NCBI GenBank assembly: GCA_016188775.1
Contig: JACPHC010000003.1
Location: forward strand, 344-64,343
Source of the DNA: Parcubacteria group bacterium
Lineage (GTDB): Bacteria > Patescibacteriota > Minisyncoccia > JACPHC01
Length of the DNA stretch: 64,000 nucleotides
Direction: 5' to 3'
This document shows, in pieces, positions 1,278-63,263 of this stretch. The position numbers and the translations under genes are program-made. The notes under the pieces are model-generated. The model saw only the letters and a program-made list of their open reading frames with translations, ran no database searches and was not told the DNA's origin. How positions within the stretch are numbered: position 1 is the stretch's first letter; every line of letters starts with the position of its first letter.

Positions 1278-1281
1278 TAAT

Positions 1282-1302
1282 TTACGAGGCTTAGCCTCGT
1301 AA
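1282..1302. repeat. REP-like palindrome TTACGAGGCTTAGCCTCGTAA (copy 1)
   Basis: Palindrome with 9-10 bp arms; six near-identical copies in the window. Confidence 0.8.
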
Positions 1303-1309
1303 GACTAAA

Positions 1310-1865: not shown

Positions 1866-1888
1866 CTTATGAGGCTAAGCCTCGTAAG
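1866..1888. repeat. REP-like palindrome (copy 2, TTATGAGGCTAAGCCTCGTAA)
   Basis: Same palindrome family, 2 nt after the pseudopilin stop. Confidence 0.8.
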
Positions 1889-1894
1889 ACTATA

Positions 1895-2010
1895 AGATTG
1901 CTTCGCTTTCAGCTCGCAATGACAACCAGTTCAGCTCGCAATAATATAAAAATATTTAACTGTCATTGCGAGGCGATGGAATCGCCGAAGCAATCTCTCT
2001 TAATATATTC
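1895..2010. mobile_element. Rearranged fragments of MITE-like element B (GTCATTGCGAG terminal inverted repeats): two left-end copies and one right end
   Basis: GCTCGCAATGACA occurs twice, followed by TGTCATTGCGAGGCGATGGAATCGCCGAAGCAATC. These match the reverse complement of element ends at 62517-62611 and 63060-63199. Confidence 0.6.
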
Positions 2011-2031
2011 AACAATCTTACAAGCAAAACA

Positions 2032-4932
2032 ATGTTCAATAAACACAAAAACGCCGGTTTCGCGACCTTGCTGACAATAGTAATTATTTTAGGCCTTAGC
2101 CTGATTATCGTCAGCGGTTTTTCCGTTGCCAGTCTGTCTAATATCCGTGAATCCAAACGCGCTATTAACTCTTCTAAAACTCAATACGTCGCCGAGGCTG
2201 GGATCGAAGACAGTCTTTATCGGATTATAGCCGGGAAACAATACACGGCGACTAATAATTTAGCGGTTGGCGAAGGAACCGCCATCACTAACATTACCGA
2301 TGTTTCCGGCAATAAAATTATCACTTCTCTGGGCAACCGAGAAAATATTTTTAGAAAACTGGAAACAAAATTATCCGTTTCCACTCAAAGCGTTCAATTT
2401 TTCTACGGCGCTCAAATCGGCGAAGGGGGCGCCACTCTTAATAATGGCGCCGAAATCAATGGCAATGTCTATTCCAACGGCAATATTGTAATGACTGCCA
2501 ACGCTAAAATTAGCGGCGGCGCTATTGTGGCCGGCGGCATCGCCCCAACGCCCGATCAGCAATGGACCATTGGAAATTCCGATTTTCCTTTTGGACTGAC
2601 CACTGGCACAACCGCCATCACCGTTGATGAGCCGGGCGATATCGGCGACTATAACGCATTAACTTTGGGTTCTGACGGACTAGCCCGGATCAGCTATTAC
2701 GACGCGTCCAATAATGATCTTAAATACGTCCGTTGTACTTCAGCCGACTGTGTTTCAAAAAATATTACTACAATTGATTCTAGCGGCGATGTCGGATTTC
2801 GTTATACTTCCATTGCCATTGCCCTGGATGGATTGGCCCGAATCAGTTATTACAATAATACTAACGGCGACCTAAAATACGTTCAATGCGCCAATGACGA
2901 CTGCACGACAAAAAATATCGCCACTATTGATTCCAGTGGCGATGTCGGCCAATTCAACTCTCTGGCTTTAGGCACTGACGGATTGGCCCGAATCAGCTAT
3001 TACGCCGTCTCGGGCGGCAATCTTAAATTCCTTCACTGTTTGAACGATAACTGTTCATTGCGAAACACTTACACTGTTGACTCAATTGGCGATGTGGGCA
3101 AATACACTTCAATAGTCTTGGATCAAAACAACATCGCGATGATCAGTTATCTTGACGAAACCAATGATGATTTAAAATTTACCCAATGTTTAAATGTTGA
3201 TTGCTCCGCGGTCAATAATTACATCGTTGACTCAACCGGCGATGTCGGCCAATTCAAAACTTCCATCGCTCTTGGGTCTGACGAACTGGCCCGAATCAGT
3301 TATTATGACGACACGGGTAAGGATCTTAAATACGCTCAATGTTTAAACATCAGTTGCACGCTTAAAAATATAACTATTGTGGACTCGGCAGATCAAGTTG
3401 GAAAATACAGCTCGCTTCGACTTAATCCGGCTGACGGATTGGCCCGAATTTCTTATTATGACGCGACCAACGGCGCTGCTAAATTCGCCCGATGCTTAAA
3501 CGATTCTTGCTCCCAAAAAAATATTTCCACTCCGGATACCACCGGCAATGTCGGGCTTTACACTTCTTTGGCGATGGCTCAAGACGGCTTTGGCCAAATC
3601 AGTTATCGCGATGACACGAATCAGGATTTAAAATTTCTCAAATGCGCTGATCCGGATTGTAATCCGGGACAAACCACCGGCGACGCGGCTCAAAGTTTTA
3701 TTCCGTCAGCCACTAATCTTTTGCGTAAAATCAGCCTCAATATCAAAAAAATCGGCAGTCCGGGTGATGCCACCGTCAGGATAATGGCCAATAAATCTCC
3801 ACAAAATGTTCCGGATAAAGATAATACATTAACCACTGGCACGCTTTATTCTTCGATGGTCACTGGCAGTTATGGCTGGGTGGACGCGGCTTTTGTCACT
3901 AATCCGACTTTAAATATCGGACAAACTTATTGGATTGTTATTGACGCGGTTAATGATTCCAATAATTATTGGGTTTGGGCTAAAGATAATACCGACGCTT
4001 ATGTTTCCGGCACTGGTAAATTCGCTTTAAATTGGGATATTTCGCCCAATAACTGGTCAAGCGCGGGCGGCGATCTTGATTTTAAAACTTGGATGGCCGG
4101 AACTGTGACGAAAATAGATGGTGGCGTTGTTTCCGACGCGGCTCAAGCCAATACTTTAATCAACACCAAAATCTGCGGGGACGCTTATTTTCAAGCCATT
4201 GACGCTTTTTCGCTCAATTTCGTCAATAATCCGACCAATCCCGATTGCGCTAATCCTTTAACTCCGGGCATGTCTTTTCCCGGTTCCTCCGACCCTTCTC
4301 CGCTGGCTATGCCTATTTCCGACGGCCAAATTGACGCGTGGAAAACCGACGCCCAAGCCGGCGGCGTTATTGCCGGAGATTACAACGTGACTTCTGATGT
4401 CAGTCTTGGTCCGAAAAAAATCACCGGCAATCTTAATATGACCAGTAACAATAGAACTCTGACCGTCACCGGAACAATTTATATCGCGGGCAATATAGAT
4501 ATTGCCAACAATTCAAGAATCCGCTGCGACGCTTCTTACGGGATAAATTCATGCGTTGTTGTGGCGGACGGTTGGATTCATATTTCCAATAACGGACAAT
4601 TCGCCGGATCGGGTCAGGCCGGCAGTTATATTATGCTGCTGACGACCGCTCCCTGCAAAGGAACCGGTTTTTCCAATCCGCCAACGCCTTGCGCCTCCGC
4701 CCACCATGAAGCCAGCGTTGACCTTCATAACAGCGCCACCGGAATAATTTTTTACGCCAAAAACGGACTGATTAATCTTCATAACACAGTTAATGTCACG
4801 GAATTGTCGTCTTTTAAACTGGCGCTGGATAACAACGCCGTGATAAATTACGAACAAGGACTGCAAAACGCTCAGTTCACTTCCGGCCCAAGCGCGGGCT
4901 ATAAAATCGAATACTGGAAAGAAGTGCCTTAA
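2032..4932 (+). CDS. Large pilus-associated protein: pilin-like N-terminal helix, eight tandem ~44-aa Cys-containing repeats (propeller-like) and a C-terminal beta-helix-like region; putative tip adhesin
   Basis: MFNKHKNAGFATLLTIVIILGL is a pilin-like N-terminus. The repeat unit is GDVGxYTS(I/L)AL..DGLARISYYDxTNxDLKYxxCxNxxC..KNI..IDS, eight copies. The ORF-track start at 1966 (TTG) lies inside a MITE fragment, so the ATG at 2032 is preferred. Confidence 0.6.
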   Translation: MFNKHKNAGFATLLTIVIILGLSLIIVSGFSVASLSNIRESKRAINSSKTQYVAEAGIEDSLYRIIAGKQYTATNNLAVGEGTAITNITDVSGNKIITSLGNRENIFRKLETKLSVSTQSVQFFYGAQIGEGGATLNNGAEINGNVYSNGNIVMTANAKISGGAIVAGGIAPTPDQQWTIGNSDFPFGLTTGTTAITVDEPGDIGDYNALTLGSDGLARISYYDASNNDLKYVRCTSADCVSKNITTIDSSGDVGFRYTSIAIALDGLARISYYNNTNGDLKYVQCANDDCTTKNIATIDSSGDVGQFNSLALGTDGLARISYYAVSGGNLKFLHCLNDNCSLRNTYTVDSIGDVGKYTSIVLDQNNIAMISYLDETNDDLKFTQCLNVDCSAVNNYIVDSTGDVGQFKTSIALGSDELARISYYDDTGKDLKYAQCLNISCTLKNITIVDSADQVGKYSSLRLNPADGLARISYYDATNGAAKFARCLNDSCSQKNISTPDTTGNVGLYTSLAMAQDGFGQISYRDDTNQDLKFLKCADPDCNPGQTTGDAAQSFIPSATNLLRKISLNIKKIGSPGDATVRIMANKSPQNVPDKDNTLTTGTLYSSMVTGSYGWVDAAFVTNPTLNIGQTYWIVIDAVNDSNNYWVWAKDNTDAYVSGTGKFALNWDISPNNWSSAGGDLDFKTWMAGTVTKIDGGVVSDAAQANTLINTKICGDAYFQAIDAFSLNFVNNPTNPDCANPLTPGMSFPGSSDPSPLAMPISDGQIDAWKTDAQAGGVIAGDYNVTSDVSLGPKKITGNLNMTSNNRTLTVTGTIYIAGNIDIANNSRIRCDASYGINSCVVVADGWIHISNNGQFAGSGQAGSYIMLLTTAPCKGTGFSNPPTPCASAHHEASVDLHNSATGIIFYAKNGLINLHNTVNVTELSSFKLALDNNAVINYEQGLQNAQFTSGPSAGYKIEYWKEVP
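2631..3670 (+). repeat. Eight tandem 132-nt coding repeats inside the large pilus-associated gene
   Basis: Recurring GACGGATTGGCCCGAATCAG(C/T)TATTAC at 132-nt spacing (around 2679, 2830, 2983, 3284, 3436). Confidence 0.75.
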
Positions 4933-4950
4933 ACTTTACGAGGCTTAAAC

Positions 4951-4973
4951 TTTACGAGGCTAAGCCTCGTAAA
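4951..4973. repeat. REP-like palindrome (copy 3; a half copy also at 4934-4946) overlapping the RAYT stop codon
   Basis: TTTACGAGGCTAAGCCTCGTAAA; encodes the last residues ...LRGLAS* of the RAYT on the minus strand. Confidence 0.8.
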
Positions 4974-5596
4974 TTTATTAAAGTGCTTTTTTTATACTGA
5001 ATCGGCCCGCCAAAAAATTTCATTAAAAATTTCCGTTGCGTGACTGAAGGGAAATTTTTTTTCCCAATATAATCACGAAAACTGCTCCATCGATAATTTT
5101 CCAAAAATTTCATCGCTTCTTTATAATTTTTAATTTCTTTATTTTTCCACTCTGGAGATTTCAAATCTAAAGGATTTAAATGGATATAATCAGGAATATG
5201 AAGAAATTGAGCGTCCTTTTCAACTAAAACTGCCTTAAAAGTTCCTTGAAATAAAGAACCGGTTCGTTCGTATTTTTGATTAAAATACATTGTATAACCT
5301 CCTCCTAATTTATGCATAAAATTTGCAATTCCGTTGTCCTGTCGCTGTCTTAAAAGTAAATGAAAATGATTTGGCATTAATGTAAAAACTAAAATTTCGA
5401 CTAATAATTTTCTTTTTTCAATTTTACGAGGCTTAGCCTCGTAATAAGAATTAAGCGCGGGCTTTTCGTCGTTAAATTCAAACAAGTCATGAATAAATCG
5501 AAAATAATCTTTATCATCTAAAAAAATATCGCGCTTTTCCACGCCACGATTATAAATATGATAAATTTTTCCTTCCGTGAATTTTATTTTTCTCAT
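4952..5596 (-). CDS. REP-associated tyrosine transposase (RAYT; IS200/IS605-like Y1 transposase)
   Basis: IYHIYNRGVEKRDIF ... LMPNHFHLLL (HuH motif) ... YTMYFNQKY (catalytic Tyr region). Flanked by REP palindromes. Confidence 0.75.
   Translation of the reverse strand: MRKIKFTEGKIYHIYNRGVEKRDIFLDDKDYFRFIHDLFEFNDEKPALNSYYEAKPRKIEKRKLLVEILVFTLMPNHFHLLLRQRQDNGIANFMHKLGGGYTMYFNQKYERTGSLFQGTFKAVLVEKDAQFLHIPDYIHLNPLDLKSPEWKNKEIKNYKEAMKFLENYRWSSFRDYIGKKNFPSVTQRKFLMKFFGGPIQYKKSTLINLRGLAS
5424..5444. repeat. REP-like palindrome (copy 4) located inside the RAYT CDS, in frame (encodes YYEAKPRK)
   Basis: TTACGAGGCTTAGCCTCGTAA within 4952..5596. Confidence 0.75.
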
Positions 5597-5605
5597 AAAA
5601 TAATT

Positions 5606-5626
5606 TTATGAGGCTTAGCCTCGTAA
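5606..5626. repeat. REP-like palindrome (copy 5), 10 nt upstream of the RAYT start
   Basis: TTATGAGGCTTAGCCTCGTAA. Confidence 0.8.
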
Positions 5627-5670
5627 AGTCAAGTTTTACATCTAAATAATTTATATGATAAAATATAACT

Positions 5671-6757: not shown

Positions 6758-6921
6758 AGACCTTTTACAAAATAATTTTTCCTACTCTAATTCTCAAATT
6801 TCGGCTGTAAATTATTCAGAGCTCCTCAACGTATTTTAATCAAATACGCTTCGTCGCTCTTCATAATTTTCGCTCGAAATTTGCGAATTTCGTTACGAAA
6901 AAATTATTTCGCAAAAAGTCT
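6758..6921 (+). mobile_element. MITE-like element A, copy 1 (terminal inverted repeats AGACCTTTTACAAAATAAT / ATTATTTCGCAAAAAGTCT); the right end abuts the pilN ATG
   Basis: About 165 nt, bounded by ~19-bp imperfect inverted repeats. Homologous to 7460-7612 and to the reverse complement of 36810-37005. Lacks the 34-nt internal hairpin present in the other copies. Confidence 0.7.
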
Positions 6922-7459: not shown

Positions 7460-7612
7460 AGACCTCTTGCAAAATAATCTTTTCTACTCCAATTCTCAAA
7501 TTTCGGGTGTCAACCCTACGGGTGATCTCCCGTAGGGAGACAAATTATTCAGAGCTTCTCAACGTATTTTGATTAAAATACGCTTCGTCGCTCTTCATAA
7601 TTTTCGCAAAAA
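7460..7612 (+). mobile_element. MITE-like element A, copy 2 (right end internally deleted); contains the CCCTACGGG-TGATCT-CCCGTAGGG hairpin
   Basis: Left inverted repeat AGACCTCTTGCAAAATAAT at 7460. The 9-bp stem hairpin sits at 7514-7537. The right end is truncated after ...TTTTCGCAAAAA. Confidence 0.65.
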
Positions 7613-32433: not shown

Positions 32434-32473
32434 TTTTACATATTTTCAAACGATCGTTTAAAAATATGTAAAA
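32434..32473. repeat. 40-bp palindrome with CGATCG core (TTTTACATATTTTCAAACGATCGTTTAAAAATATGTAAAA)
   Basis: Near-identical to the copy at 44299-44338. Confidence 0.75.
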
Positions 32474-34862: not shown

Positions 34863-34938
34863 AATCGCCTCGTTAGCTCAATCGGCAGAGCAGCTCCCTC
34901 TTAAGGAGAAGGTTGGAGGTTCGATTCCTCCACGAGGC
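34863..34938 (+). tRNA. tRNA-Lys (anticodon CTT), CCA encoded
   Basis: GCCTCGT-TA-GCTC ... GAGC, anticodon loop CTCTTAA, T arm GGAGG-TTCGATT-CCTCC, acceptor ACGAGGC-A-CCA. Confidence 0.75.
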
Positions 34939-35273
34939 ACCAAAAATAAAAAATACTCATAAAAACTGCCGACTCGCAATAACTTCGTTAATTTAATAAA
35001 AACAATAAATAAATTTTACCCACTTTTACGCTATCGCTGAAATATAGGTAAATTTACAAAAAAACTTGACAAAATTTTTTATAGTAATATAATAAAAATA
35101 TATAAAAAAGTTAATAAGATTTAGGCCTGCGAAAAGCGGGAACCTAAAAAGGAAAGGGCAAAGCTCAAACAAGAGCTCCAGTCTATCCCTAAAGGGCGAC
35201 GGAGTTATTGTTTGAGCTTTTTTGTATAATTAGACCTTTAAAAACAAAGAAACAACTAGAAAGGAGGAGGCAA

Positions 35274-35675
35274 ATGTTTAAAAGAATAATCATAACAGTT
35301 TTGATTATTCTCTTTACTGCAAATATGGCAATTGCCTGGGCTTGCGATAAATCAAACCACGAACTTCCGCCCGCTCCCGACGCCGTGCATCTAATTAATG
35401 AAGGCCATGATATGTGGTTCTACTACAAACTCTATTATGATGACAACGGCCATTATATGACCGCCCATGTCCTCAAACCCGAAACAGGCATTTTACCTGA
35501 TGAAAATGGAGATGTTGAATACTTTGAATTTCCTATTTTCTATTATTGGGATAAAAATGGAAACGGTAAATTCGAGGAAAGTCTAAACGAAATCTGGATT
35601 GATCCGGAGTGGCAAGAAGCGGATGCTGGAAATTGCAAAAACATCAAAATCTATAATGTGTTCCAAGATGAGTAA
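35274..35675 (+). CDS. Small secreted hypothetical protein
   Basis: RBS GAAAGGAGGAGG and the signal peptide MFKRIIITVLIILFTANMAIAWA. The track start at 35208 is upstream of the RBS. Confidence 0.5.
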   Translation: MFKRIIITVLIILFTANMAIAWACDKSNHELPPAPDAVHLINEGHDMWFYYKLYYDDNGHYMTAHVLKPETGILPDENGDVEYFEFPIFYYWDKNGNGKFEESLNEIWIDPEWQEADAGNCKNIKIYNVFQDE

Positions 35676-35688
35676 AAACAACTGAATA

Positions 35689-35716
35689 AAGTCCCGATTA
35701 ATTCAAGTCGGGACTT
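35689..35716 (+). terminator. Rho-independent terminator
   Basis: AAGTCCCGA-TTAATTCAAG-TCGGGACTT, followed by TTAAAATTGTCATTTTT. Confidence 0.6.
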
Positions 35717-35757
35717 TAAAATTGTCATTTTTATTTTTATTTATTGTATTGAAAATT

Positions 35758-35801
35758 AAATTTACACCTTTACGGACGATCGTCCGTAAAGGTGTAAATT
35801 T
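35758..35801. repeat. 44-bp perfect palindrome with CGATCG core (AAATTTACACCTTTACGGACGATCGTCCGTAAAGGTGTAAATTT)
   Basis: Shares the central ACGATCGT with the 32434 and 44299 palindromes; the arms differ. Confidence 0.7.
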
Positions 35802-35845
35802 CAAAAAAATCTAATTAAAAACTATCTAATTAAAAACTAACTTTT

Positions 35846-35960
35846 GCTAATTTTATCCAATCTGACAAGCTTAAATTCTCCGGCCTTAATTTTGGATCAA
35901 GGCCGGATTTTTTCAGCCAAATCTCGACTTTTTCTTTATCAAGGCCGAGGTTTTTAAATC
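35846..35960 (-). pseudogene. Diverged duplicate of the ksgA 3' end (encodes ...GLDPKLRPENLSLSDWIKLAKVSF*) immediately downstream of the functional gene
   Basis: About 115 nt, roughly 80% identical to 35990-36075. Confidence 0.55.
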
Positions 35961-35982
35961 TTACGATGCTAAGCCTCGTAAG
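35960..35982. repeat. REP-like palindrome (copy 6, one mismatch) forming the last codons and stop of ksgA
   Basis: CTTACGATGCTAAGCCTCGTAAG; the minus-strand reading gives ...VLRGLAS*. Confidence 0.75.
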
Positions 35983-36809
35983 ACTACTAATTTTATCCAA
36001 TCTTTTAAGCTTAAATTCTCCGGTCTTAATTTTGGATTAAGACCGGCTTTTTTTATCCAAATTTCAGTCTTTGCTTTATCCATACTTAAATTTTTTGAAA
36101 GCGTGTTTAAAATAGTTTTTCGTTTTCCTTGAAAAGCCGGCCGAGCGATTTTAAAAATTTTTTTTGTTTCCTTTTTTAAAGGTTTTTTAGTTTTAGGAAT
36201 AATTTTTAAAATCGCCGAATCCACTTTTGGCTGGGGCCAAAAAGAGCCTTTTTTCACATAATCCGCGATTTGGGCGTTAGCAAAAATTTGAACGCTCAAG
36301 GCTAATAAATTCATATCCGGCGGCCGAGCCAATATTCTTTGCCCCACTTCTTTTTGAACCATAATAATCATTTTTTGAGGCTGAAATTCGGAATCTAAAA
36401 ATTTTTGAATCACTCGTGAAGCGATATTGTAAGGCAAATTAGCCACCAGCGCGTAATTTTTCGCCAAATTAAGGCTTTGAATATCCAATTTCAAAATATC
36501 GGCCTGGATCAGCCGGATATTTTGAAGATTTTCTGATTCAAAAATGCCAGCGGCGATTTGAGCCAGTTGTTTATCTTTTTCAATCGCGACAACTTTTTTC
36601 GCTTTTCTCGCCAAAGCCACGGTCAAAGTTCCAAGACCGGCGCCTATTTCCAAAACTTCATCTTCCTTTTTTAAATCCGCGGCTTGAATAATTTTTTCTA
36701 AAACTCCGGGGTTAATTAAAAAATTCTGGCCTAAAGATTTCTTGGGATAAATATGATGTTGGGCTAAAATTTTTTTAATACTGACAGCCGAAAAAAAATT
36801 ATCACTCAT
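35961..36809 (-). CDS. ksgA: 16S rRNA (adenine1518/1519-N6)-dimethyltransferase
   Basis: SLGQNFL ... EIGAGLG ... NLPYNI motifs. Confidence 0.9.
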   Translation of the reverse strand: MSDNFFSAVSIKKILAQHHIYPKKSLGQNFLINPGVLEKIIQAADLKKEDEVLEIGAGLGTLTVALARKAKKVVAIEKDKQLAQIAAGIFESENLQNIRLIQADILKLDIQSLNLAKNYALVANLPYNIASRVIQKFLDSEFQPQKMIIMVQKEVGQRILARPPDMNLLALSVQIFANAQIADYVKKGSFWPQPKVDSAILKIIPKTKKPLKKETKKIFKIARPAFQGKRKTILNTLSKNLSMDKAKTEIWIKKAGLNPKLRPENLSLKDWIKLVVLRGLAS

Positions 36810-37005
36810 AAGACCTTTTGCGAAATAATTTTTCGTAACGAAATTCGCAAATTTCGAGCGAAAATTATGAAGAGCGACGAAGCGTATTTTAATTAAAATA
36901 CGTTGAGGAGCTCTGAATAATTTGTCTCCCTACGGGAGATCACCCGTAGGGTTGACACCCGAAATTTGAGAATTGGAGTAGAAAAGATTATTTTGCAAGA
37001 GGTCT
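36810..37005 (-). mobile_element. MITE-like element A, copy 3 (full length, with the internal hairpin). Its right end abuts the ksgA ATG; its left inverted repeat contributes the uvrD/pcrA stop codon.
   Basis: The reverse complement matches 7460-7612 and 6758-6921. Terminal inverted repeats are AGACCTCTTGCAAAATAAT / ATTATTTCGCAAAAGGTCT. Confidence 0.7.
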
Positions 37006-44298: not shown

Positions 44299-44338
44299 TT
44301 CTACATATTTTCAAACGATCGTTTGAAAATATGTAGAA
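44299..44338. repeat. 40-bp perfect palindrome with CGATCG core (TTCTACATATTTTCAAACGATCGTTTGAAAATATGTAGAA)
   Basis: Second copy of the 32434 element. Confidence 0.75.
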
Positions 44339-49266: not shown

Positions 49267-50394
49267 CTATAAAACTACTAATCCCGTCGGCGCGGAAGGC
49301 GGCGTGGTGTCGGAAGTGGTCAAGAGATACCCATTTGCATTTACATTGCCATTCTCATCAATCACATATAAGTAAGTGCTAATAAAATCACTAAAAGAAC
49401 CCTGATTCAAAGTTATGATAATAGATGTATTTGACCAAGCAGACGGGATTTGGATTTCGCACTTATTACGAATGGTAGAAGTTGCACCAGCACAAACTTC
49501 AACTCTTGCCCAAGAGTTATCAATATATAAATCATCCCAATAAGTACTAACAGCTTGTCCCGTGGGGACATTAACTAATCCATATCCAAAATGAGGAGTT
49601 GATAAATATGTACCTGTTTGGGATATTGTAACACCAGTTTTACTTCTTCTAACGACAGTCCCATCACTATGATAAGCAACCCAATTTGCAACTCCATCTG
49701 AAGAATTTGCATCTGTTGAGTCTCGGAACTCTATTTCAAACCGTACCCACTGTGCAGGTCTTATCCAATCATCCCAAGTAGAAGGAATCCATTCTCCGCC
49801 TGTAGAGCCGGTTCTAAACTCATAATAGTTACCACTTGAGCCTATTGTGCCATCAGCTTCCCACCAAGATTGTAAAGCTAACACCGGTTCATCTGCATGT
49901 GCAGGGCCTGAACCAATATGAATTAATTTAATCTGCCAATCTACTAAACTTTGTAAACTTACCATACTCACATAAAGATACCCAGAAATGTATTTTATCC
50001 CTGTAGTCGTCCAAGCATTTAATTTGTAAAAACCATTATTACCTGGACCAAAACCAGTACCTGGATACACCATCCTATCTACTACTGACAAACTTGAACG
50101 ACTATTTCTTTGATTTTTATTTGTGAATTTTGCATCCGCCTGATCATCCCTATTAGTCCAATAACCAGTTGATTCTACATCATTACCATTTGTACCATTT
50201 TCAAAATTCTCCCATTTCAATGGCGCAGCAGTTGCCTTTGTCCCAAACCCACTCCCCGCAATTGTCACTATCCCGTTATGAACAAATGCGCCGCCTGTAT
50301 TCGTGATCTGCACCGCCGCGCTTGCAAAACCCACTCCCCCAAAAAGCCCGAGGGAAATTATGGCGAAGTAAATTAGGTTTTTTGTTTTGCGCAT
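49267..50394 (-). CDS. Secreted surface protein, paralogue 1 (conserved 5' and 3' boxes, variable core; ends ...TTPPSAPTGLVVL*)
   Basis: Signal peptide MRKTKNLIYFAIISLGLFGGVGFASA. The N-terminal ~55 aa and C-terminal ~45 aa are near-identical to 51414..52481. GC is higher than the local average. Confidence 0.6.
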   Translation of the reverse strand: MRKTKNLIYFAIISLGLFGGVGFASAAVQITNTGGAFVHNGIVTIAGSGFGTKATAAPLKWENFENGTNGNDVESTGYWTNRDDQADAKFTNKNQRNSRSSLSVVDRMVYPGTGFGPGNNGFYKLNAWTTTGIKYISGYLYVSMVSLQSLVDWQIKLIHIGSGPAHADEPVLALQSWWEADGTIGSSGNYYEFRTGSTGGEWIPSTWDDWIRPAQWVRFEIEFRDSTDANSSDGVANWVAYHSDGTVVRRSKTGVTISQTGTYLSTPHFGYGLVNVPTGQAVSTYWDDLYIDNSWARVEVCAGATSTIRNKCEIQIPSAWSNTSIIITLNQGSFSDFISTYLYVIDENGNVNANGYLLTTSDTTPPSAPTGLVVL

Positions 50395-50523
50395 GTTTTT
50401 AGTTTACCACCAATCCCGTCGGCGCCGCGGGCGGGGTGGTGTCGGGCAGTTTTTCGCGCGTTTTAATATATTATTTTGCTATTCCAAATTTTTTCGGATT
50501 TTCTAAAACACCTTTAACTCCTC

Positions 50524-50883
50524 TTAAGAAAACATCAAAATCAACCAATTTATCATTGATGATTTTATAATTCTGTAACCAGCCATCTCTTGTAGCGCGG
50601 TATCGGCAAAGTGTTTGTCAACAATGTGATATTCTCCGATTTTTCTTGCCATCTCTTTGTATTCCGAAGCCTGGGCGCCGGGAATTCTCGATAATATGTG
50701 GGCGCTGATATGGAACACTCCTTCCAATGCTCGATGGAGGTGGAATTGAGCTAATTTAAAACCAACTCCTTTTTCAAATTCTTCAAACGACAATTGCGCG
50801 AGCTTCTCAAGTTCTTTAATTTCTCCTTGAATTCCGTTTATTCTTTTTAGAATAATGTCTCTATCAAGAAAAAGTTTTGTCAT
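50524..50883 (-). CDS. hepT: HepT-like (DUF86) toxin of a HepT/MntA toxin-antitoxin pair
   Basis: Size and a C-terminal RxxxxHxY-like region (ARKIGEYHIV); 4-nt overlap with the upstream MntA gene. Confidence 0.6.
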   Translation of the reverse strand: MTKLFLDRDIILKRINGIQGEIKELEKLAQLSFEEFEKGVGFKLAQFHLHRALEGVFHISAHILSRIPGAQASEYKEMARKIGEYHIVDKHFADTALQEMAGYRIIKSSMINWLILMFS

Positions 50884-51290
50884 ATTCTTTGAAGTATGGC
50901 TTTATGGAACTCTGATCGCAATGGAGCAAAATCGGCATATTCCTCCATTGTCGTTTCCAAGAAATTTGAGATTATTTTCTGATCTCCAAGATAGAGCAAA
51001 ACGCCGTCTTGGGCGATGCGATGCTTAATTTGTAAATCAGCTTGTTCAACAAAGACAATATCAATATTGATTAGGGCGTTAATTTGTTTAGACAGTATTT
51101 CATAAAGCTTATTATAGATTTTTTTTCTTTCCGCGGCGTCTCTTATCATTTTTTTATTTTTAACCAAAACGGCAAAGTCAAAATCGCTGGTTTTATTTGC
51201 CGTTCCCTGGGCTTGTGAACCAAACAAAAAAATGCCGGCAATGCCAAGTTCTTCCATTTTTTCTTTTTGAAATTTAAATTTCATAAACAT
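50880..51290 (-). CDS. mntA: MntA-like minimal nucleotidyltransferase (antitoxin)
   Basis: GS-x9-13-DxD motif: LFGSQAQGTANKTSDFDFAV. Confidence 0.75.
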   Translation of the reverse strand: MFMKFKFQKEKMEELGIAGIFLFGSQAQGTANKTSDFDFAVLVKNKKMIRDAAERKKIYNKLYEILSKQINALINIDIVFVEQADLQIKHRIAQDGVLLYLGDQKIISNFLETTMEEYADFAPLRSEFHKAILQRI

Positions 51291-51317
51291 AATATACCAT
51301 AGTAATTATTACCAGTT

Positions 51318-51413
51318 CAACTTTAATTTACCGCCAATCCCGCCCGCCTTCATTACATTACGGCCCGCTTCGCCTAAGCTCCAGCGAGGCGAGCGAGGCC
51401 AGTCGGCCTTCAA
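51318..51413. repeat. GC-rich stacked scars of the surface-protein 3' module (near-identical to 52515-52600)
   Basis: AATCCCGCCCGCCTTCA ... TTACGGCCCGCTTCGCCTAAGCTCCAGCGAGGCGAGCGAGGCCAGTCGGCCT is shared by both loci. Confidence 0.7.
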
Positions 51414-52481
51414 TTAATTTACGGCGAGGCCCGTCGGCGCGGAAGGCGGGGCGGTGTCGGGAGTGGTCAAGAGATACCCATTTGCATTTACATTGCCATT
51501 CGCATCAAATACGTAGAGGTAGGCATTATTTTGAATTTCTAGATTTCCTTGGTTTATAGTTATTGTAATGGAGGTATCTGACCAGGCTAATGGAATCTGA
51601 ACCTCCCGAATAGTGGAGGCCGCCAAAGTTGGAGCATTCCCAATCTCAGCCCTAGCCCACGTGTTATCTATATATATGTTATCCGCATATGTAATATCAT
51701 CAGGTCTACCCGTAGCACCACCTGCCGCGGCTGCACCTACCCATCCTCCAATATGGGGTTCCTGAATTCCTGGGGCATTTGTGTCGGCAAAACGAAGCCC
51801 AGTTCCGCTTGATATAAGGACATTATCCATATATATATACGCAGAACCATTAGCTCCATATACCCCATTATTATAATCTATATCTAATATAACCTTAAAA
51901 TCGTACCATTTGTCCTTTAACGCAGAAAAATTTCCCCATGAGGTTTCGGGCGACAGATTACCTAAATATATTTTATTAAGCTCATGTCTTGCGTCTAACG
52001 CAAAATTCGGGGGCGCGCCATCCCAATTATCGCCCCACATGAATATTTTTTCGTTTCCAGTGCCTCCGCTTGTGTCAAAAGTAAAATTAGGATCCCATTT
52101 CCATTTAAAAAAGGCTATTGTATGGTTGAGCGTTTGCCCCACAGGTTTTGATGCCCATCTTGTTCCATAGTTTGCGAATGATTCAAATTGCAGGAATCTT
52201 GTTGAGACTGCGCTTATTTGGTTAGGGCCTGTTGCGTAAACATTGTTACCAATAACACTATTATAATTAGCTGCGACCGTGCCTGTTTCAGCATCATCCC
52301 ACCATAGCGGCGCAGCTATTGCCTTTGTCCCAAACCCGCTCCCCGCAATTGTCACTATCCCGTTATGAACAAATGCGCCGCCTGTATTCGTGATCTGCGC
52401 CGCCGCGCTTGCAAAACCCGCTCCCCCGAAAAGCCCGAGGGAAATTATGGCGAGACAAATTATGTTTTTTGATTTGTTCAT
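51414..52481 (-). CDS. Secreted surface protein, paralogue 2 (ends ...DTAPPSAPTGLAVN*)
   Basis: Signal peptide MNKSKNIICLAIISLGLFGGAGFASA. Termini are shared with paralogue 1; the core is divergent. Confidence 0.6.
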   Translation of the reverse strand: MNKSKNIICLAIISLGLFGGAGFASAAAQITNTGGAFVHNGIVTIAGSGFGTKAIAAPLWWDDAETGTVAANYNSVIGNNVYATGPNQISAVSTRFLQFESFANYGTRWASKPVGQTLNHTIAFFKWKWDPNFTFDTSGGTGNEKIFMWGDNWDGAPPNFALDARHELNKIYLGNLSPETSWGNFSALKDKWYDFKVILDIDYNNGVYGANGSAYIYMDNVLISSGTGLRFADTNAPGIQEPHIGGWVGAAAAGGATGRPDDITYADNIYIDNTWARAEIGNAPTLAASTIREVQIPLAWSDTSITITINQGNLEIQNNAYLYVFDANGNVNANGYLLTTPDTAPPSAPTGLAVN

Positions 52482-52514
52482 AAATTTGACCCTAAACTAA
52501 TGACCGCTTTCTAC

Positions 52515-52600
52515 TGTACCGCTAATCCCGCCCGCCTTCAATTAATTTACGGCCCGCTTCGCCTAAGCTCCAGCGAGGCGAGCGAGGCCAGTCGGCCTGC
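52515..52600. repeat. GC-rich 3' module scar (copy of 51318-51413)
   Basis: About 75 nt near-identical to the 51340-51413 copy. Confidence 0.7.
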
Positions 52601-52604
52601 AATC

Positions 52605-52907
52605 TTAATATATATATGGGTTGTATATTTCTACGTCTGATTGAAGGTTTATGATTCCCGAGACACCGAAAATTACTATCCTTGCCTCTGAAGCAGTCAC
52701 GGCCTCTCTGAAACTTCCAGGCCCATTATCATTTAAGTTTGTAACTCTAATAACTTGTCCTCCCCTGCCGCCCACGCTATTTGCTCCAAAACCTTCAGCC
52801 CCTGGAAAAGCAACTAACGCAAATGAACTTTTGGAAATTCCAAAGACGCCAAGCAGGATAATGATATTAATAATTAAAATTTTGCTTTTTAATTTCATAT
52901 TTCCCAC
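52605..52907 (-). pseudogene. N-terminal fragment (100 aa) of a pectate-lyase-like secreted protein
   Basis: Signal peptide plus AFPGAEGFGANSVGGRGGQVIRVTNLNDNGPGSFREAV (the pectate lyase N-terminal motif), then a premature stop followed by the module scar. Confidence 0.5.
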
Positions 52908-54103
52908 GCTTCAATAATATTGTGTCTGCCAACGTTTTTCATTTTAACGGATAAAGAAACAATTTTAAAATTAAAATCTTTATAATTTTCCATAAAAATT
53001 TTATAATTCTTTTCTTTAAATTGCAGCGGCTGGGCTTTAACTTCTATCGCTTCCTTTTCTTTAATAATAAAATCAATTTCATTTTTCTGGACTGTGCGCC
53101 AAAATTTTATATCATTTGAATCATATTTATCAAGAAGCTGGCGGAAAACAGCGTTTTCAAGAAGTATGCCCTTATCTTCCCTTGTGTCATAAGGAGAAAA
53201 ATTATCAACCAAAAAATTTCTTAATCCCAAGTCGTAAAAATAAACCTTGGGCATCTTGGTTAGCTCTTTTCTTACATTTTTATAAAAAGGGTTTATCAAT
53301 TTTATATGAAATGATTTTTGCATTACATATAAATAATGATCTACGGCGGTTTTTGAAACTCCCAAAGTATTAGCTAATTCCGAAGCATTAACGAGACTGC
53401 CAACCTGAACGGCAAAAATCTTGAATAATTTATAAAAAATTTCTTCTTGCCGAATATGGGCCTCAAAAATATCTTTTTTGATATACGAATAAACTATGTC
53501 TCTCAAAATATCTTGCTTTTCCGATAAAGGAGCTAAAACCACCCGCGGATAGCCGCCGTAAATAATATACTCTCTATAATATAGCTCAATTTTTTCTTTT
53601 TCAGACAATGTTAATTTTTCAAAATCTTTTTTGGATAATTCTTCTTCCTCTTTAAAGCGCAGAAATTCCCTGAAAGAAACGGTGAAAACATTGAATATCT
53701 TTTTTCTTCCGGCCAGCGAATCTTTAAATTTTTTATCCAAATAAAACGCGGATGAGCCGGAAGCAATAATTTTAATAGCGCCGGCATACTCGTCATAAAA
53801 ATATTTTAAAAAATTTGAAGGATTTTTGAGATATTGAATTTCATCAATAAAAATAAAGTTTTTCTTTTTTAAATCAACGGGGAAAATTTTAAAAAGATTT
53901 TTAGGCGATTCATTAAGCAGAATCAGATAATCAGGATCTTCTAAATTCAAAAAATAGGTTTTTTTATTCTCTTGTTCAAGAATGCTTTGAAGTTGTTTTA
54001 AAATTGTAGTTTTTCCCGCTTGTCTTGAGCCAATAAAAATAAGGATTTCCGGATCCTCAAGGTATTTTCGGGCTTTTAATGTAATATCTCTGATAATAGT
54101 CAT
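52895..54103 (-). CDS. AAA+ ATPase with C-terminal DUF4143-type domain (COG1373-like)
   Basis: Walker A GSRQAGKTT and Walker B IFIDEIQ; 402 aa. Confidence 0.7.
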   Translation of the reverse strand: MTIIRDITLKARKYLEDPEILIFIGSRQAGKTTILKQLQSILEQENKKTYFLNLEDPDYLILLNESPKNLFKIFPVDLKKKNFIFIDEIQYLKNPSNFLKYFYDEYAGAIKIIASGSSAFYLDKKFKDSLAGRKKIFNVFTVSFREFLRFKEEEELSKKDFEKLTLSEKEKIELYYREYIIYGGYPRVVLAPLSEKQDILRDIVYSYIKKDIFEAHIRQEEIFYKLFKIFAVQVGSLVNASELANTLGVSKTAVDHYLYVMQKSFHIKLINPFYKNVRKELTKMPKVYFYDLGLRNFLVDNFSPYDTREDKGILLENAVFRQLLDKYDSNDIKFWRTVQKNEIDFIIKEKEAIEVKAQPLQFKEKNYKIFMENYKDFNFKIVSLSVKMKNVGRHNIIEAWEI

Positions 54104-54144
54104 AAATACATTTTATCCGTTATTTTGTATTTGTCAAATTATTA

Positions 54145-54195
54145 TTTCTATTGTACCACTAATCCCGCCCGCCTGAGAGACCCTTTCGCCTGCAA
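54145..54195. repeat. GC-rich 3' module scar (variant copy)
   Basis: CTAATCCCGCCCGCCTGAGAGACCCTTTCGCCTGCAATTAATTTACGG. Confidence 0.6.
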
Positions 54196-55962
54196 TTAAT
54201 TTACGGCTAGGCCAGTCGGCGCCGCGGGCGGGGTAGTGTCCTGCTGTGCTCCTGACACATATTCATACGCGCCAATATCCCAAGCCAATCCTTGTGGGCG
54301 AGTTACCTTGTCGAAGTCTACGGCGATAGAGAGGCCGTAAATATTTTGGAAGGTTTGGTAAACCGAGGAAACAAGGCCCGCATTTACAGCGGAACTTCCC
54401 GATTGGAGATGGAAATCATTTGCCGATGAGTTTACAAATAACGGATCGGCATTCAAAGAATTCGCGCCCTTACTGGTTGCCGACTGGAAAGTGGCAAGCG
54501 AGGTATAGGTATTCGCGCCCCAAATCGTCTTAAAACCACCTCCAAAAAGAAAGTTATCAACCGTTGAGTTTGCGGCGTTTATCGATGAAGCAAGAAATAT
54601 ATCGCTTCCCGCTCCCAGTCCCGCGATAATGTTATTAGCCATGAAAAAAGAGCCGCTGTCGGGGGAATTCACGCCAGCGTCCACATCATAAAATGTATTG
54701 TTGATGACATAGCGGTTCCGCCCTCCCCAGGTGGTCATGGCCGCTCCGTTTGAATAAGCGTTATTGGGATCGAAAGCCGGACTGTGAATGCCATGAATCA
54801 CGTTGCCGATAAAATACAAATTCTGACCAAAGCCATCTCCATCCGGCCCGCTTGTGCTGGCGCCGCCGATACCCGTGTGGCAATCATACAAATTGTTATA
54901 GAGAAACCACACCCGTTCCGGACCGTACTGATACCCGGCGCAATTGCCCCCGGACGACGATGGGCTTGGCACAATTCCGTAGGCGGTATTTCGCGAGAAA
55001 ACCACATCGGTTGCCTGCTTCGTCCAAAATCCGGTCTGTTTATGGTGATGAGATGTATTTCCCCCAAAATAAATATGATGAGTTCGCGACGTAACTGAAT
55101 CAGAATCCGCCTTGCTGCCGCCGTTGACTTGAATGCCGTCGCCGCTGCAGCGCGCAAGTTCATTATCGAGCACCCAAACATTGTCAGCATGCCCAATTCC
55201 GACACAATGAACATCTTGGTCGATCGTTGTGGCGATGTCGCCATTGTCATGGATATAATTACTGTACACCAAAATATTCGAAATTCGGTTAGTATCAGAG
55301 CTTGCGATCTCGACTCCGCCGCCCACGAGGTTCCCATGCGCGTCGCTAAAACGAAGCGCGAGGTGATCTGACGGCGATACGATAACGAAACTCCCGGACG
55401 AGCCTCCGGAAAGGTCGCCGTCCGCATCGGCAAATTCAAGATTTTCGAAGATAGCATAAGTTCCCTTGACTTGCATGTTTGCAATAATTTTTGGCTTTTC
55501 TGAATCGCTAACCCCCCGGATAAAGACCGGACTTGTCGAGGTTCCGTTCGCGGTAATGATATTAGGATTGGTATAGCTGCATATCCCTGAGCAATCCCGA
55601 TATATATTTCCATGCATTTCGACAACGGATCCTTCCGGAATGGGTTTAGGCGGACTTTTTCGCGGTAAGGCCGGTGTTCCATAGAGGTTATTTGAATCAG
55701 TAGCGCCGGCGCATGAAGTGCAGACGAAATAAAAGCCGGGGGTGGGCAATGTCCATGGATTCGGGGCTACGGGCGCGGTTTCTGCGATGCCAAACGGCGG
55801 ATTTGGAATGCCGACAGGAGGAATATACGCGTGAACCGTACTTCCCAAAACGATGATGCTTGCCAAGACTAGGAACAACGAAGCGAGCCAAAGCGATATT
55901 TGTTTTATAAGCCAACGGAAAGGAAAATAATTTAAATATGAAATATTTGCTTTTTTAAACAT
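54196..55962 (-). CDS. Secreted right-handed beta-helix (pectate-lyase-fold) protein ending in the shared ...DTTPPAAPTGLAVN* module
   Basis: Signal/TM segment, NxDxxH-rich beta-helix repeats (NGDIATTIDQDVHCVGIGHADNVWVLDNE...) and WDIGAYEY near the C-terminus. High GC. Confidence 0.65.
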   Translation of the reverse strand: MFKKANISYLNYFPFRWLIKQISLWLASLFLVLASIIVLGSTVHAYIPPVGIPNPPFGIAETAPVAPNPWTLPTPGFYFVCTSCAGATDSNNLYGTPALPRKSPPKPIPEGSVVEMHGNIYRDCSGICSYTNPNIITANGTSTSPVFIRGVSDSEKPKIIANMQVKGTYAIFENLEFADADGDLSGGSSGSFVIVSPSDHLALRFSDAHGNLVGGGVEIASSDTNRISNILVYSNYIHDNGDIATTIDQDVHCVGIGHADNVWVLDNELARCSGDGIQVNGGSKADSDSVTSRTHHIYFGGNTSHHHKQTGFWTKQATDVVFSRNTAYGIVPSPSSSGGNCAGYQYGPERVWFLYNNLYDCHTGIGGASTSGPDGDGFGQNLYFIGNVIHGIHSPAFDPNNAYSNGAAMTTWGGRNRYVINNTFYDVDAGVNSPDSGSFFMANNIIAGLGAGSDIFLASSINAANSTVDNFLFGGGFKTIWGANTYTSLATFQSATSKGANSLNADPLFVNSSANDFHLQSGSSAVNAGLVSSVYQTFQNIYGLSIAVDFDKVTRPQGLAWDIGAYEYVSGAQQDTTPPAAPTGLAVN

Positions 55963-55984
55963 TAGTAATTTTTTATATTAGTTT

Positions 55985-56040
55985 CAAATTTTAATTTACC
56001 GCCAATCCAGTCGGCGTGGCGGGCGGAGTGGTGTCAGGGG
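55985..56040. repeat. 3' module scar upstream of the beta-helix protein gene
   Basis: TTAATTTACCGCCAATCCAGTCGGCGTGGCGGGCGGAGTGGTGTCAGG. Confidence 0.6.
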
Positions 56041-62516: not shown

Positions 62517-62650
62517 GTCATTGCGAGCAAAGCGAAGCAATCTTAAAAAGAATCGCGTAAATTTTTAAATTAAGAGATCGCTTCGGCCATTCCATCGCCT
62601 CGCAATGACGGTTAAAAGATTGTTTTTAACGATTCCATCGCCTCGCGCTG
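62517..62650. mobile_element. MITE-like element B, copy 1 (inverted repeats GTCATTGCGAG / CTCGCAATGAC) plus an extra partial right end
   Basis: TGTCATTGCGAGCAAAGCGAAGCAATC ... GATCGCTTCGGCCATTCCATCGCCTCGCAATGACGG, then GATTCCATCGCCTCGCGCTG. Confidence 0.65.
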
Positions 62651-63059
62651 TATGCTTTATTGAATAATAAATCTTACCTGTGGATAAATTGGGGAAATGA
62701 TAAAGAATTACAAATGTAAATTTATTAAACTATCTTTAAAAATCCGCTCAACCAAGCGGATTTTTAAAGATTAAACATTTGACAAATATCTTAAAAAGTT
62801 ATCAACTGAATAACCTATTGACTTCTTTCGCGCGTAGACTAAAATATAAATAGATCTTTGCGAGTTTGAAAAAATTTCCCGAATTCAACGGGAAAACAGT
62901 TCTTTTTTCAATTTTGTTCTTTGCTCAAAGTCCAATTCGGACAAACTGGCAGAGATTTGCAAATTTCTGTCTTGTTTCGAAGACAGAACCAAAGGCGCTT
63001 TAGCCCAATTTATACAAAATATATTTTAAGGGCTTATAAAGCGCCTTTTTTATTTATTT

Positions 63060-63199
63060 TGTCATTGCGAGCTGAAAGCGAAGCAATTTCAAAAAAAATC
63101 GCGTAAATTTTTAAATTAAGAGATCGCTTCGGCCATTCCATCTCCTCGCAATGACGGTTAAAAGATTGTTTTAGCGATTCCATCGCCCCGCAATGACGA
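63060..63199. mobile_element. MITE-like element B, copy 2 (about 90% identical to copy 1, with a duplicated right end)
   Basis: TGTCATTGCGAGCTGAAAGCGAAGCAAT ... CTCCTCGCAATGACGG ... GATTCCATCGCCCCGCAATGACGAG. Confidence 0.65.
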
Positions 63200-63263
63200 G
63201 CTGAAAAATTATTTTGATGATTTCATTTGATATCTGATTTTACAAATAGTAAAATAAAAGCAA

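Follow-up and report, generated by a model that had tools for sequence, protein, structure and literature searches.

In the GTAG and CGTC super-families of repetitive extragenic palindromic (REP) elements, short palindromes lie mostly just 3' of genes. According to Di Nocera et al. 2013 (PMC3733652), a neighbouring open reading frame (ORF) often takes its stop codon from the REP terminus, slightly more than 10% of the intragenic REPs are located at an ORF end, and REPs may overlap, at either end, the genes of the REP-associated tyrosine transposases (RAYTs). We describe here a REP element at the 3' end of the rRNA methyltransferase gene ksgA (rsmA), in a 64,000-nucleotide stretch of DNA from a Parcubacteria group bacterium (contig JACPHC010000003.1, assembly GCA_016188775.1); this whole stretch is referred to as the window. 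Its elements are likewise short palindromes, mostly just 3' of genes, and they end ORFs, as was seen for ksgA, for the RAYT-like gene of the window and, in other genomes, for genes encoding a PurN-like formyltransferase, a uracil-DNA glycosylase (UDG) and a VKOR protein. They differ in having no GTAG or CGTC head, in their Patescibacteria host and, at ksgA, in a 109-nt diverged copy of the gene end that lies behind the REP. A REP that supplies the end of a gene is an already known phenomenon. The unusual part of this locus is the diverged orphan end; the evidence argues that it is a trace, rarely preserved, of a recombination event in which diverged gene ends were joined at a REP.

The arrangement also resembles the REPtrons of Gammaproteobacteria (PMC2817692; Bertels and Rainey, bioRxiv 10.1101/2021.07.10.451892): one Y1 HUH transposase gene in 64 kb is flanked by cognate REPs, the REPs are concentrated near this gene with one copy dispersed, and they are found at or directly after stop codons. 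Unlike REPtrons, the window has a transposase with a RAYT score below the cutoff and an NPLDLK motif, a REP within the transposase's own reading frame, and single REPs instead of REP doublets forming hairpins (REPINs). In bacterial interspersed mosaic elements (BIMEs), the 3' ends of rayt genes are captured between REPs (Nunvar et al. 2010, PMC2817692). The ksgA locus shares with this the copy of a gene 3' end that adjoins a REP head-to-tail, but there two REPs and a rayt gene take part, whereas here a single REP and a housekeeping gene are found and the copies are 20% diverged.

Two further systems are close in other respects. Rickettsia palindromic elements (RPEs) are reportedly inserted in frame into protein-coding genes; as at ksgA, conserved housekeeping proteins gain translated residues from a palindromic repeat and are apparently not destroyed by it, but RPEs are longer (about 100-150 nt), internal, and without a dedicated transposase or a flanking duplicate. 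In E. coli, REPs within approximately 15 nt of a stop codon are said to lower translation through ribosome stalling and trans-translation; ksgA shares with these genes a predicted stable RNA hairpin at the stop codon (-12.5 kcal/mol), with TAA in the 3' arm.

The REP element at the end of ksgA

The ksgA product was identified by Pfam RrnaAD (E = 2e-55, 188 bits) and by the equivalog profile TIGR00755 (243 bits, where the cutoff is 171; residues 21-275 covered). Its translation contains an intact S-adenosylmethionine (SAM) motif (EIGAGLGTLT) and NLPY motif (ANLPYNI), both of which align to solved KsgA structures. The gene is joined to the REP at codon 275 and ends ...ENLSLKDWIKL-VVLRGLAS (terminal sequence LSLKDWIKLVVLRGLAS and stop), in which VVLRGLAS and TAA are contributed by the REP. 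The REP core encodes LRGLAS and TAA, and most of the coding sequence for the two valines comes from the window-specific outer stem TAGTC, giving eight non-native residues. The preliminary description had assigned the C-terminus and stop of ksgA to the REP, and this was borne out, the eight residues and TAA all lying within the 31-nt element.

The core at ksgA (CTTACGAGGCTTAGCATCGTAAG, 35960-35982) differs at one position, in the stem, from the consensus CTTACGAGGCTWAGCCTCGTAAG, of which six copies are present in the window against 0.01 expected. Five of the six are clustered within 4.4 kb near the RAYT-like gene, and the sixth is located at ksgA, 30 kb away. The arms of the ksgA element are 12-nt inverted repeats (35959-35970 and 35972-35983; 92% complementary), and the predicted RNA hairpins of the REPs range from -8 to -21 kcal/mol. 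The elements, palindromes of 21-31 nt, thus agree with what is expected for REPs, namely imperfect palindromes of 20-40 nt that are present in excess and mostly just outside genes. All six are single units; no REPIN or BIME doublets were seen among them.

The claim that the REP would read LRGLAS and stop in either orientation was wrong. With the central T on the coding strand it reads LRGLAS and stop, and with the central A it reads LRG and stop. In the following frame the REP can be read through if it is A-centred (YEAKPRK), and the third frame is open both ways (TRLSLV). In the frame of ksgA both orientations give a stop. In total three of the six combinations of frame and orientation terminate an incoming ORF, so that REP-encoded C-termini are expected wherever the element lands in a gene end. 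Near the start of the window, the TAG stop (1862-1864) of a pilin-like ORF overlaps the outer stem of a further REP (1863-1891, AGTCTTATG...), which makes this a third gene of the window with a stop that is partly supplied by a REP.

An alignment of orthologues had been proposed as a check on which ksgA end is ancestral. The source is a singleton Parcubacteria metagenome-assembled genome (MAG), and in a search of about 5.8 billion protein clusters the nearest KsgA proteins were only 51-53% identical; the 119 best homologues were therefore taken as outgroup. Both the stop codon and the last residues of ksgA lie within the repeat, and the homologues end otherwise: none of the 119 ends in LRGLAS. 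Past the motif ...DW[IL]KL their tails comprise 3-16 residues, with T/A, K, S/T/N and F/Y at successive positions. The tail AKVSF, which follows the second ksgA end downstream of the REP, conforms to this pattern, and one representative that was found with the peptide of this second end (P0127) terminates in ...DWVKLAKIF. On the homologue profile, AKVSF contributed +4.5 bits and VVLRGLAS +1.6 bits. These comparisons support the view that the VVLRGLAS tail is REP-derived and non-ancestral.

Residues 273-275 are the last to be covered by TIGR00755 or by alignments with KsgA proteins of solved structure, and the REP-derived tail lies beyond them. The exchanged tail lies outside the conserved KsgA fold (which ends ...DWIKL), and the enzyme is most likely still working; judged from its sequence, KsgA with the REP-derived tail is most probably intact and functional. 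KsgA is universally conserved, yet not strictly essential in model bacteria. The preliminary description spoke of the replaced native C-terminus of an essential enzyme. The exchange of the tail holds, but its effect was overstated, because only five residues were exchanged beyond the conserved domain, in a tail that is naturally variable (3-16 amino acids among homologues). The functional consequence is probably negligible.

Copies A and B of the ksgA 3' end

The locus reads [ksgA codons 1-275]-REP-[last 41 codons], the latter consisting of 36 conserved codons and the AKVSF tail. The two ksgA ends, copy A (translated, upstream of the REP) and copy B (downstream), are 109 nt each with a period of 140 nt, and are identical at 87 of the 109 positions (79.8%) without gaps (blastn E = 4e-27; tblastn E = 9e-14, 77.8% over 36 amino acids). 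A downstream copy of approximately 115 nt and 80% identity had been reported before; the homology was confirmed, but the length is 109 nt and copy A reaches 36095 instead of 36075. The observation that the downstream copy encodes a normal KsgA end also stands, AKVSF and stop being of the homologue type.

Copy B lies in the -1 frame relative to ksgA and is not translated by read-through. From 36036 onwards its frame stays open across the REP, and the sequence AAAATTA is followed after approximately 5 nt by the REP hairpin. A programmed -1 frameshift into this frame was considered and is very unlikely, as AAAATTA is not a canonical slippery heptamer and no other support was found. Copy B contains neither an indel nor an in-frame stop. 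The 22 differences between the copies comprise 10 synonymous and 12 non-synonymous changes (dN/dS approximately 0.18).

Several comparisons indicate which of the copies has changed most. On the family profile built from the 119 homologues, copy B scored 57.8 bits and copy A 52.7 bits, and 98 of the 119 were nearer to copy B than to copy A. Copy A is derived at M5, A8, T10 and I14, the I following the conserved W where 113 of the 119 homologues have L. A single residue is unusual in copy B (S31). The AT shift is likewise located in copy A: at 16 sites A/T in copy A faces G/C in copy B, against 5 sites of the reverse type (p = 0.027). The G + C content at third codon positions (GC3) is 0.22 in copy A, 0.42 in copy B and 0.39 in the genome on average. 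The low GC3 of the last 250 nt of ksgA was also considered as a recombination boundary; it is probably due to lysine-rich AAA codons and was not used. The divergence is mosaic, identity amounting to 61% in the first 33 nt and to 88% in the 76 nt that follow (p = 0.018 by maximum chi-square permutation), and third codon positions differ in 7 of 11 cases in the left block and in 4 of 25 in the right block (p = 0.008). The REP itself is one position off the core consensus, while the synonymous divergence of the copies is approximately 0.5. In copy B the empty site is uninterrupted (TTAG/CAAAAG). These statistics were obtained from few sites, but they point the same way, and suggest that copy B belonged to a working gene for most of the time during which A and B diverged.

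The preliminary description saw in the locus a REP insertion with a diverged duplicate of the native end left downstream. In the simplest version of this history, one REP-linked event produced the order A-REP-B, after which the untranslated copy B decayed neutrally while copy A remained under selection. No simpler sequence of events is available; copy B is indeed out of frame and downstream of the stop, and the mismatch in the REP stem implies that the event is not brand new. An insertion after ...AAATTAG would leave a 17-nt remainder (CAAAAGTTAGTTTTTAA) only, and not a second set of 36 codons. Neutral decay predicts that copy B is the more derived and AT-shifted one, whereas both properties are found in copy A (p = 0.027), and it predicts even decay, whereas the differences at third positions are unevenly distributed (p = 0.008). 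It would also have to account for zero indels in 126 nt of supposedly neutral DNA and for a REP much closer to its consensus than the copies are to each other at synonymous sites. Insertion alone, followed by decay, is not supported by copy B fitting the family better, copy A being AT-shifted and the divergence being mosaic, and we regard it as quite improbable.

We favour instead a history, at a probability of roughly 40%, in which recombination joined two diverged ksgA ends at the REP. It is proposed because the orphan is intact and consensus-like, with a normal G + C content and an empty site, because copy A is derived and AT-shifted, and because the divergence is mosaic. Copies A and B would have grown apart in separate lineages, each within a working gene. 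Unequal, illegitimate recombination would then have united them, for example through homology-anchored integration of DNA that had been taken up. The joint, at the REP or adjacent to it, would connect an allele filled by the REP (A-REP) with an allele lacking it (B-tail), the latter from the start of its homologous segment. Homology-facilitated illegitimate recombination reportedly takes place in natural transformation. There, one homologous anchor and one illegitimate joint can set foreign DNA beside the resident homologue, which likewise gives a partial duplication of diverged alleles; the difference is that at ksgA such a mechanism is purely inferred. The REP hairpin at the stop and copy B would now merely form a structured 3' untranslated region (UTR), to which no adaptive function is assigned.

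The transposase could also have been involved directly. In a single RAYT-mediated event, the Y1 transposase would have duplicated the REP and the 109 nt of host DNA beside it, inserting the copy in tandem, comparable to the formation of BIME modules or to one-ended transposition of other HUH elements. Capture of rayt 3' ends between REPs in BIMEs (Nunvar et al. 2010, PMC2817692) is in line with this, as is the partial duplication of a REP and its flank beside the RAYT-like gene (4928-4961). The segment at ksgA is bounded by one REP, whereas BIME capture has a REP on each side; a second REP was not found near 35700-36200 in a search allowing 2-3 mismatches. In addition, the copies would have been identical at the start, which raises the same objections as to insertion followed by decay. 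Approximately 50 other REP copies in 34 loci of other genomes were inspected and none showed a comparable flanking repeat, the few other matches of 15-62 nt being far weaker. The duplicated flank is therefore no by-product of ordinary REP insertion. Target-site duplications would consist of identical direct repeats of 2-14 bp at every insertion, whereas the ksgA repeat is 109 nt long and 80% identical. Such an event is very improbable.

The slimmest chance was given to an artefact of assembly or scaffolding, in which a contig ending in the REP was joined to an overlapping contig of a variant population and the diverged overlap was not recognised. The source is a MAG, assemblies break at repeats, and the 140-nt period is near common k-mer and read lengths. 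On the other hand, the copies differ by 12-39%, far above strain variation, neither Ns nor an exact k-1 overlap are seen at the joint, and the 64-kb window holds no other diverged tandem of this kind. Moreover, three repeat families are common to the two sides of the joint: the REP subtype with the GACTA/TAGTC stem that is specific to the window, a family resembling MITEs (miniature transposable elements with inverted repeats), and palindromes centred on CGATCG. These shared families rule out a cross-species contig chimera.

The origin of copy B was sought in the window and in databases. No second ksgA paralogue from which it could have come was present within the window. An exact-protein contig look-up for close relatives gave no match, two metagenome DNA scans (one for the shared ksgA 3' motif, one for the window-specific REP subtype) gave 0 matches each, and exhaustive phmmer with copy B gave 7 matches, all with at most 64% identity and none pointing to a donor lineage. 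A word-indexed protein search with the copy B peptide gave no match either, which is uninformative, as it also missed the window's own KsgA despite common 5-residue words. With nothing more than 64% identical elsewhere, copy A (78%) is the nearest known relative of copy B.

That A and B are mutually closest among all known KsgA sequences would be expected if they arose in situ, by a 108-nt (36-codon) in-frame tandem duplication of the ksgA 3' end. Both copies would have been translated for a long time, the terminal copy B remaining conservative and the internal copy A drifting, with partial gene conversion, until a later REP insertion at the boundary restored the normal length. In a variant, 140 nt comprising the segment and the REP were duplicated and the distal REP was then precisely excised. 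The period of 140 nt equals 108 nt plus a 32-nt insert, the open, indel-free frame and low dN/dS of copy B are expected if it was translated until recently, and gene conversion could explain the block of 88% identity. Local tandem duplications do occur in the window, as shown by the perfect 16-nt (4928-4961) and 15-nt (35809-35839) repeats. For a duplication in situ, two or three rare events would have had to happen independently at the same place and the REP to hit the repeat boundary exactly, and of the second REP in the variant there is no trace. Nor does this history explain the AT shift and the more derived state of precisely the copy that was retained as the working one. We consider this history, the main alternative to recombination, rather unlikely.

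Recombination between separate lineages, the history that we prefer, is weakened by several points as well. The searches revealed neither a donor nor a close relative, the statistics on polarity and codons were all drawn from 22 substitutions, and the sequence is MAG-derived. The mosaic pattern requires an extra assumption here too, such as an earlier recombination or a nucleotide-level constraint on the hairpin that the copies share, and microhomology at the putative illegitimate joint does not exceed a few bases.

The RAYT-like gene and the same REP in other genomes

The transposase gene of the window encodes an IS200-like Y1 protein, with Pfam Y1_Tnp over residues 63-139 and readable NHFHLLL and DYIHLNP motifs, in agreement with the HUH motif and catalytic tyrosine of such proteins. 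On the NCBIfam profile REP_Tyr_transpos (NF047646) it scored 39.9 bits, under the cutoff of 80 for the RAYT equivalog, and no significant match to PDB sequences was obtained. The RAYT motif that follows the tyrosine is NP(L/V)(R/K)xG (Nunvar et al. 2010, PMC2817692); the corresponding site reads NPLDLK, in which NPL is present and (R/K)xG is absent. The gene has cognate REPs on both sides (5605 and 4951), a layout that was also found in four other stretches (L004, L028, L031 and L005); in L004, L005 and L031 a REP lies within a few codons of the RAYT start. The family and its transposase act like a REP-RAYT unit, with the transposase at best a distant member of the RAYT family.

It had been noted that the RAYT ends in the same way as ksgA, and indeed the protein terminates in ...LINLRGLAS inside the REP. 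Homologues run 20-25 amino acids beyond ..YKK(D/E) (..KWLxE......LE and stop), while the window protein is cut at YKKST/LINLRGLAS. Its sequence thus indicates that the window RAYT is itself truncated by a REP.

Five RAYT homologues (approximately 56-71% amino acid identity) carry the exact 21-nt REP core in their own coding sequence, in the constant frame ..YEAKPRK.. It is located in a linker of variable length between FNDExPAxNxYY and the HUH strand LLVEILxFxLMPNHFH. The homologue in L034, which is more distant (47% identity), has no internal REP. Invariant REP nucleotides amid a diverging protein suggest either binding by the transposase (autoregulation) or recurrent homogenisation.

The core TTACGAGGCTWAGCCTCGTAA was found to be identical in 34 stretches (L001-L034) of a genome contig scan. 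Their hosts are Wolfebacteria, Jorgensenbacteria, Saccharibacteria, other Patescibacteria and one Omnitrophica MAG. When 52 copies were oriented and summarised in a position matrix, their flanks proved to prolong the palindrome (caatc..gattg or caact..agttg). Membership of the GTAG super-family was rejected, because no conserved GTAG or GT(A/G)G head is present over the 52 copies; the GTAG seen at the ksgA REP consists of G and the local TAGTC stem. In other Patescibacteria the same REP ends a PurN-like formyltransferase gene (L015 7835-7855, ..KILRG), a family-4-like UDG gene (L018 442-462, ..AILRG) and a VKOR gene (L031 6107-6127, ..MRSLRGLAS).

Taken from these sequences, this looks like an undescribed REP-RAYT family over several Patescibacteria lineages. 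A literature search found no report pairing RAYT or REPIN with Patescibacteria, which is no proof of novelty. That the 109-nt ksgA end and its REP are the product of a single RAYT-type reaction, within such an undescribed association with a REP in frame in the transposase, is improbable. If true, such co-mobilisation would make REP insertions at gene ends self-buffering and reversible, with the native end kept as a spare direct repeat.

Surrounding repeats and implications

The coordinates of the features are collected in Table 1.

Table 1. Features of the ksgA locus, the REP elements and the RAYT-like gene (window positions unless a stretch is named)
Feature	Position	Strand	Remark
ksgA/rsmA coding sequence, 282 aa, 849 nt	35961-36809	-	stop codon inside REP; ORF list, Pfam, TIGR00755
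Copy A, translated last 36 conserved ksgA codons (KNLSMDKAKTEIWIKKAGLNPKLRPENLSLKDWIKL, plus 1 nt)	35987-36095	-	pairwise alignment
REP copy 6, 31 nt, between the two ksgA 3' copies (TAGTCTTACGAGGCTTAGCATCGTAAGATTT)	35956-35986	-	encodes (V)VLRGLAS and TAA
Copy B, untranslated orphan (KNLGLDKEKVEIWLKKSGLDPKLRPENLSLSDWIKL)	35847-35955	-	-1 frame relative to ksgA
Native-type tail AKVSF and TAA after copy B	35830-35846	-	fits homologue consensus [T/A]-K-[S/T]-F
Hairpin inside copy A, then T-run on plus strand, terminator-like	36020-36046	+	
Equivalent hairpin inside copy B (TCCGGCCTT..AAGGCCGGA and TTTTTT)	35879-35907	+	appears in fold
Perfect 15-nt tandem duplication, 2.1 copies, including copy B stop codon	35809-35839		Tandem Repeats Finder (TRF), 100% matches
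44-nt perfect palindrome, likely ksgA terminator	35758-35801	-	terminator scan, inverted repeat, fold
REP between two pilin-like genes	1281-1303		core match
REP just 3' of pilin-like ORF 1310-1864	1866-1888		outer stem overlaps the TAG stop of that ORF
Perfect 16-nt tandem duplication, 2.1 copies, flank and left half of RAYT-side REP	4928-4961		TRF
REP at RAYT 3' end, overlapping the stop	4951-4973		adjoins the perfect 16-nt partial duplication 4928-4961
RAYT-like IS200-type Y1 transposase gene, ending ...LINLRGLAS inside REP 4951	4952-5596	-	Pfam Y1_Tnp 4e-9
REP within RAYT coding sequence	5423-5445		frame YYEAKPRKI
REP 9 nt upstream of RAYT ATG	5605-5627		
REP cores inside RAYT genes	window 5423-5445; L004 526-546; L005 7620-7640; L026 4656-4676; L028 3431-3451; L031 5574-5594		

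With the likely terminator placed downstream of copy B, the structured 3' UTR would comprise the REP and copy B and measure approximately 160 nt. The outer sequence CTTTACG..CGTAAAG of the 44-nt palindrome recurs in the REP variant close to the RAYT-like gene. The palindrome has no second copy in the window, and in appearance it is nearer to the family of CGATCG-centred palindromes than to a second REP. Palindromes of 40 nt centred on ACGATCGT were found at 32434-32473, 44299-44338, 35014-35053 and 35760-35799 (downstream of ksgA); two of the copies are 93% identical. They sit at gene ends and resemble bidirectional terminators. In the region of the REP and copy B no Rfam family scored above threshold, the only hit being a tRNA-Lys at 34867. 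The 16-nt and 15-nt duplications are recent slippage events at or near REP-associated sites.

The hairpins inside copies A and B comprise 9-12 bp and lie in the GL(N/D)PKLRPE codons; in one stem pair both bases differ between the copies (T-A in A, C-G in B). On the plus strand both resemble intrinsic terminators facing the convergent gene 35275-35675.

The MITE-like family has copies of approximately 110-195 nt with terminal inverted repeats (AGACCTYTTGCRAAATAAT) and a long internal hairpin, at 36811-37004, 6758-6869 and 7460-7603. One copy fills the entire gap between the stop of a UvrD-like helicase gene (37004) and the ATG of ksgA (36809). With the REP on the other side, ksgA is thus bracketed by mobile-looking palindromic elements. 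The two other copies flank a pilN-like gene in the type IV pilus cluster. In this cluster, a 988-amino-acid ORF (1966-4932, plus strand) contains at least 6 units of approximately 150 nt (..GLARISYYDxxxxDLKYxxC..) with 60-74% nucleotide identity (families D1, D2 and D15). Further dispersed and local repeats of 80-96% identity were found at 49283-56027 and 62529-63226 (families D3, D5, D7, D11-D13 and D18).

For annotation, protein ends of the type ...LRGLAS or ...LRG are to be read as repeat-derived and not as functional motifs, and the 56-codon ORF at 35830-36000 is a gene fragment and not a gene. The wider observations on the REP and the RAYT-like transposase may be a more valuable lead than the ksgA locus itself. 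For the Patescibacteria, with their tiny and gene-dense genomes, the locus means that a REP family can rewrite the last residues of housekeeping genes without obvious damage.

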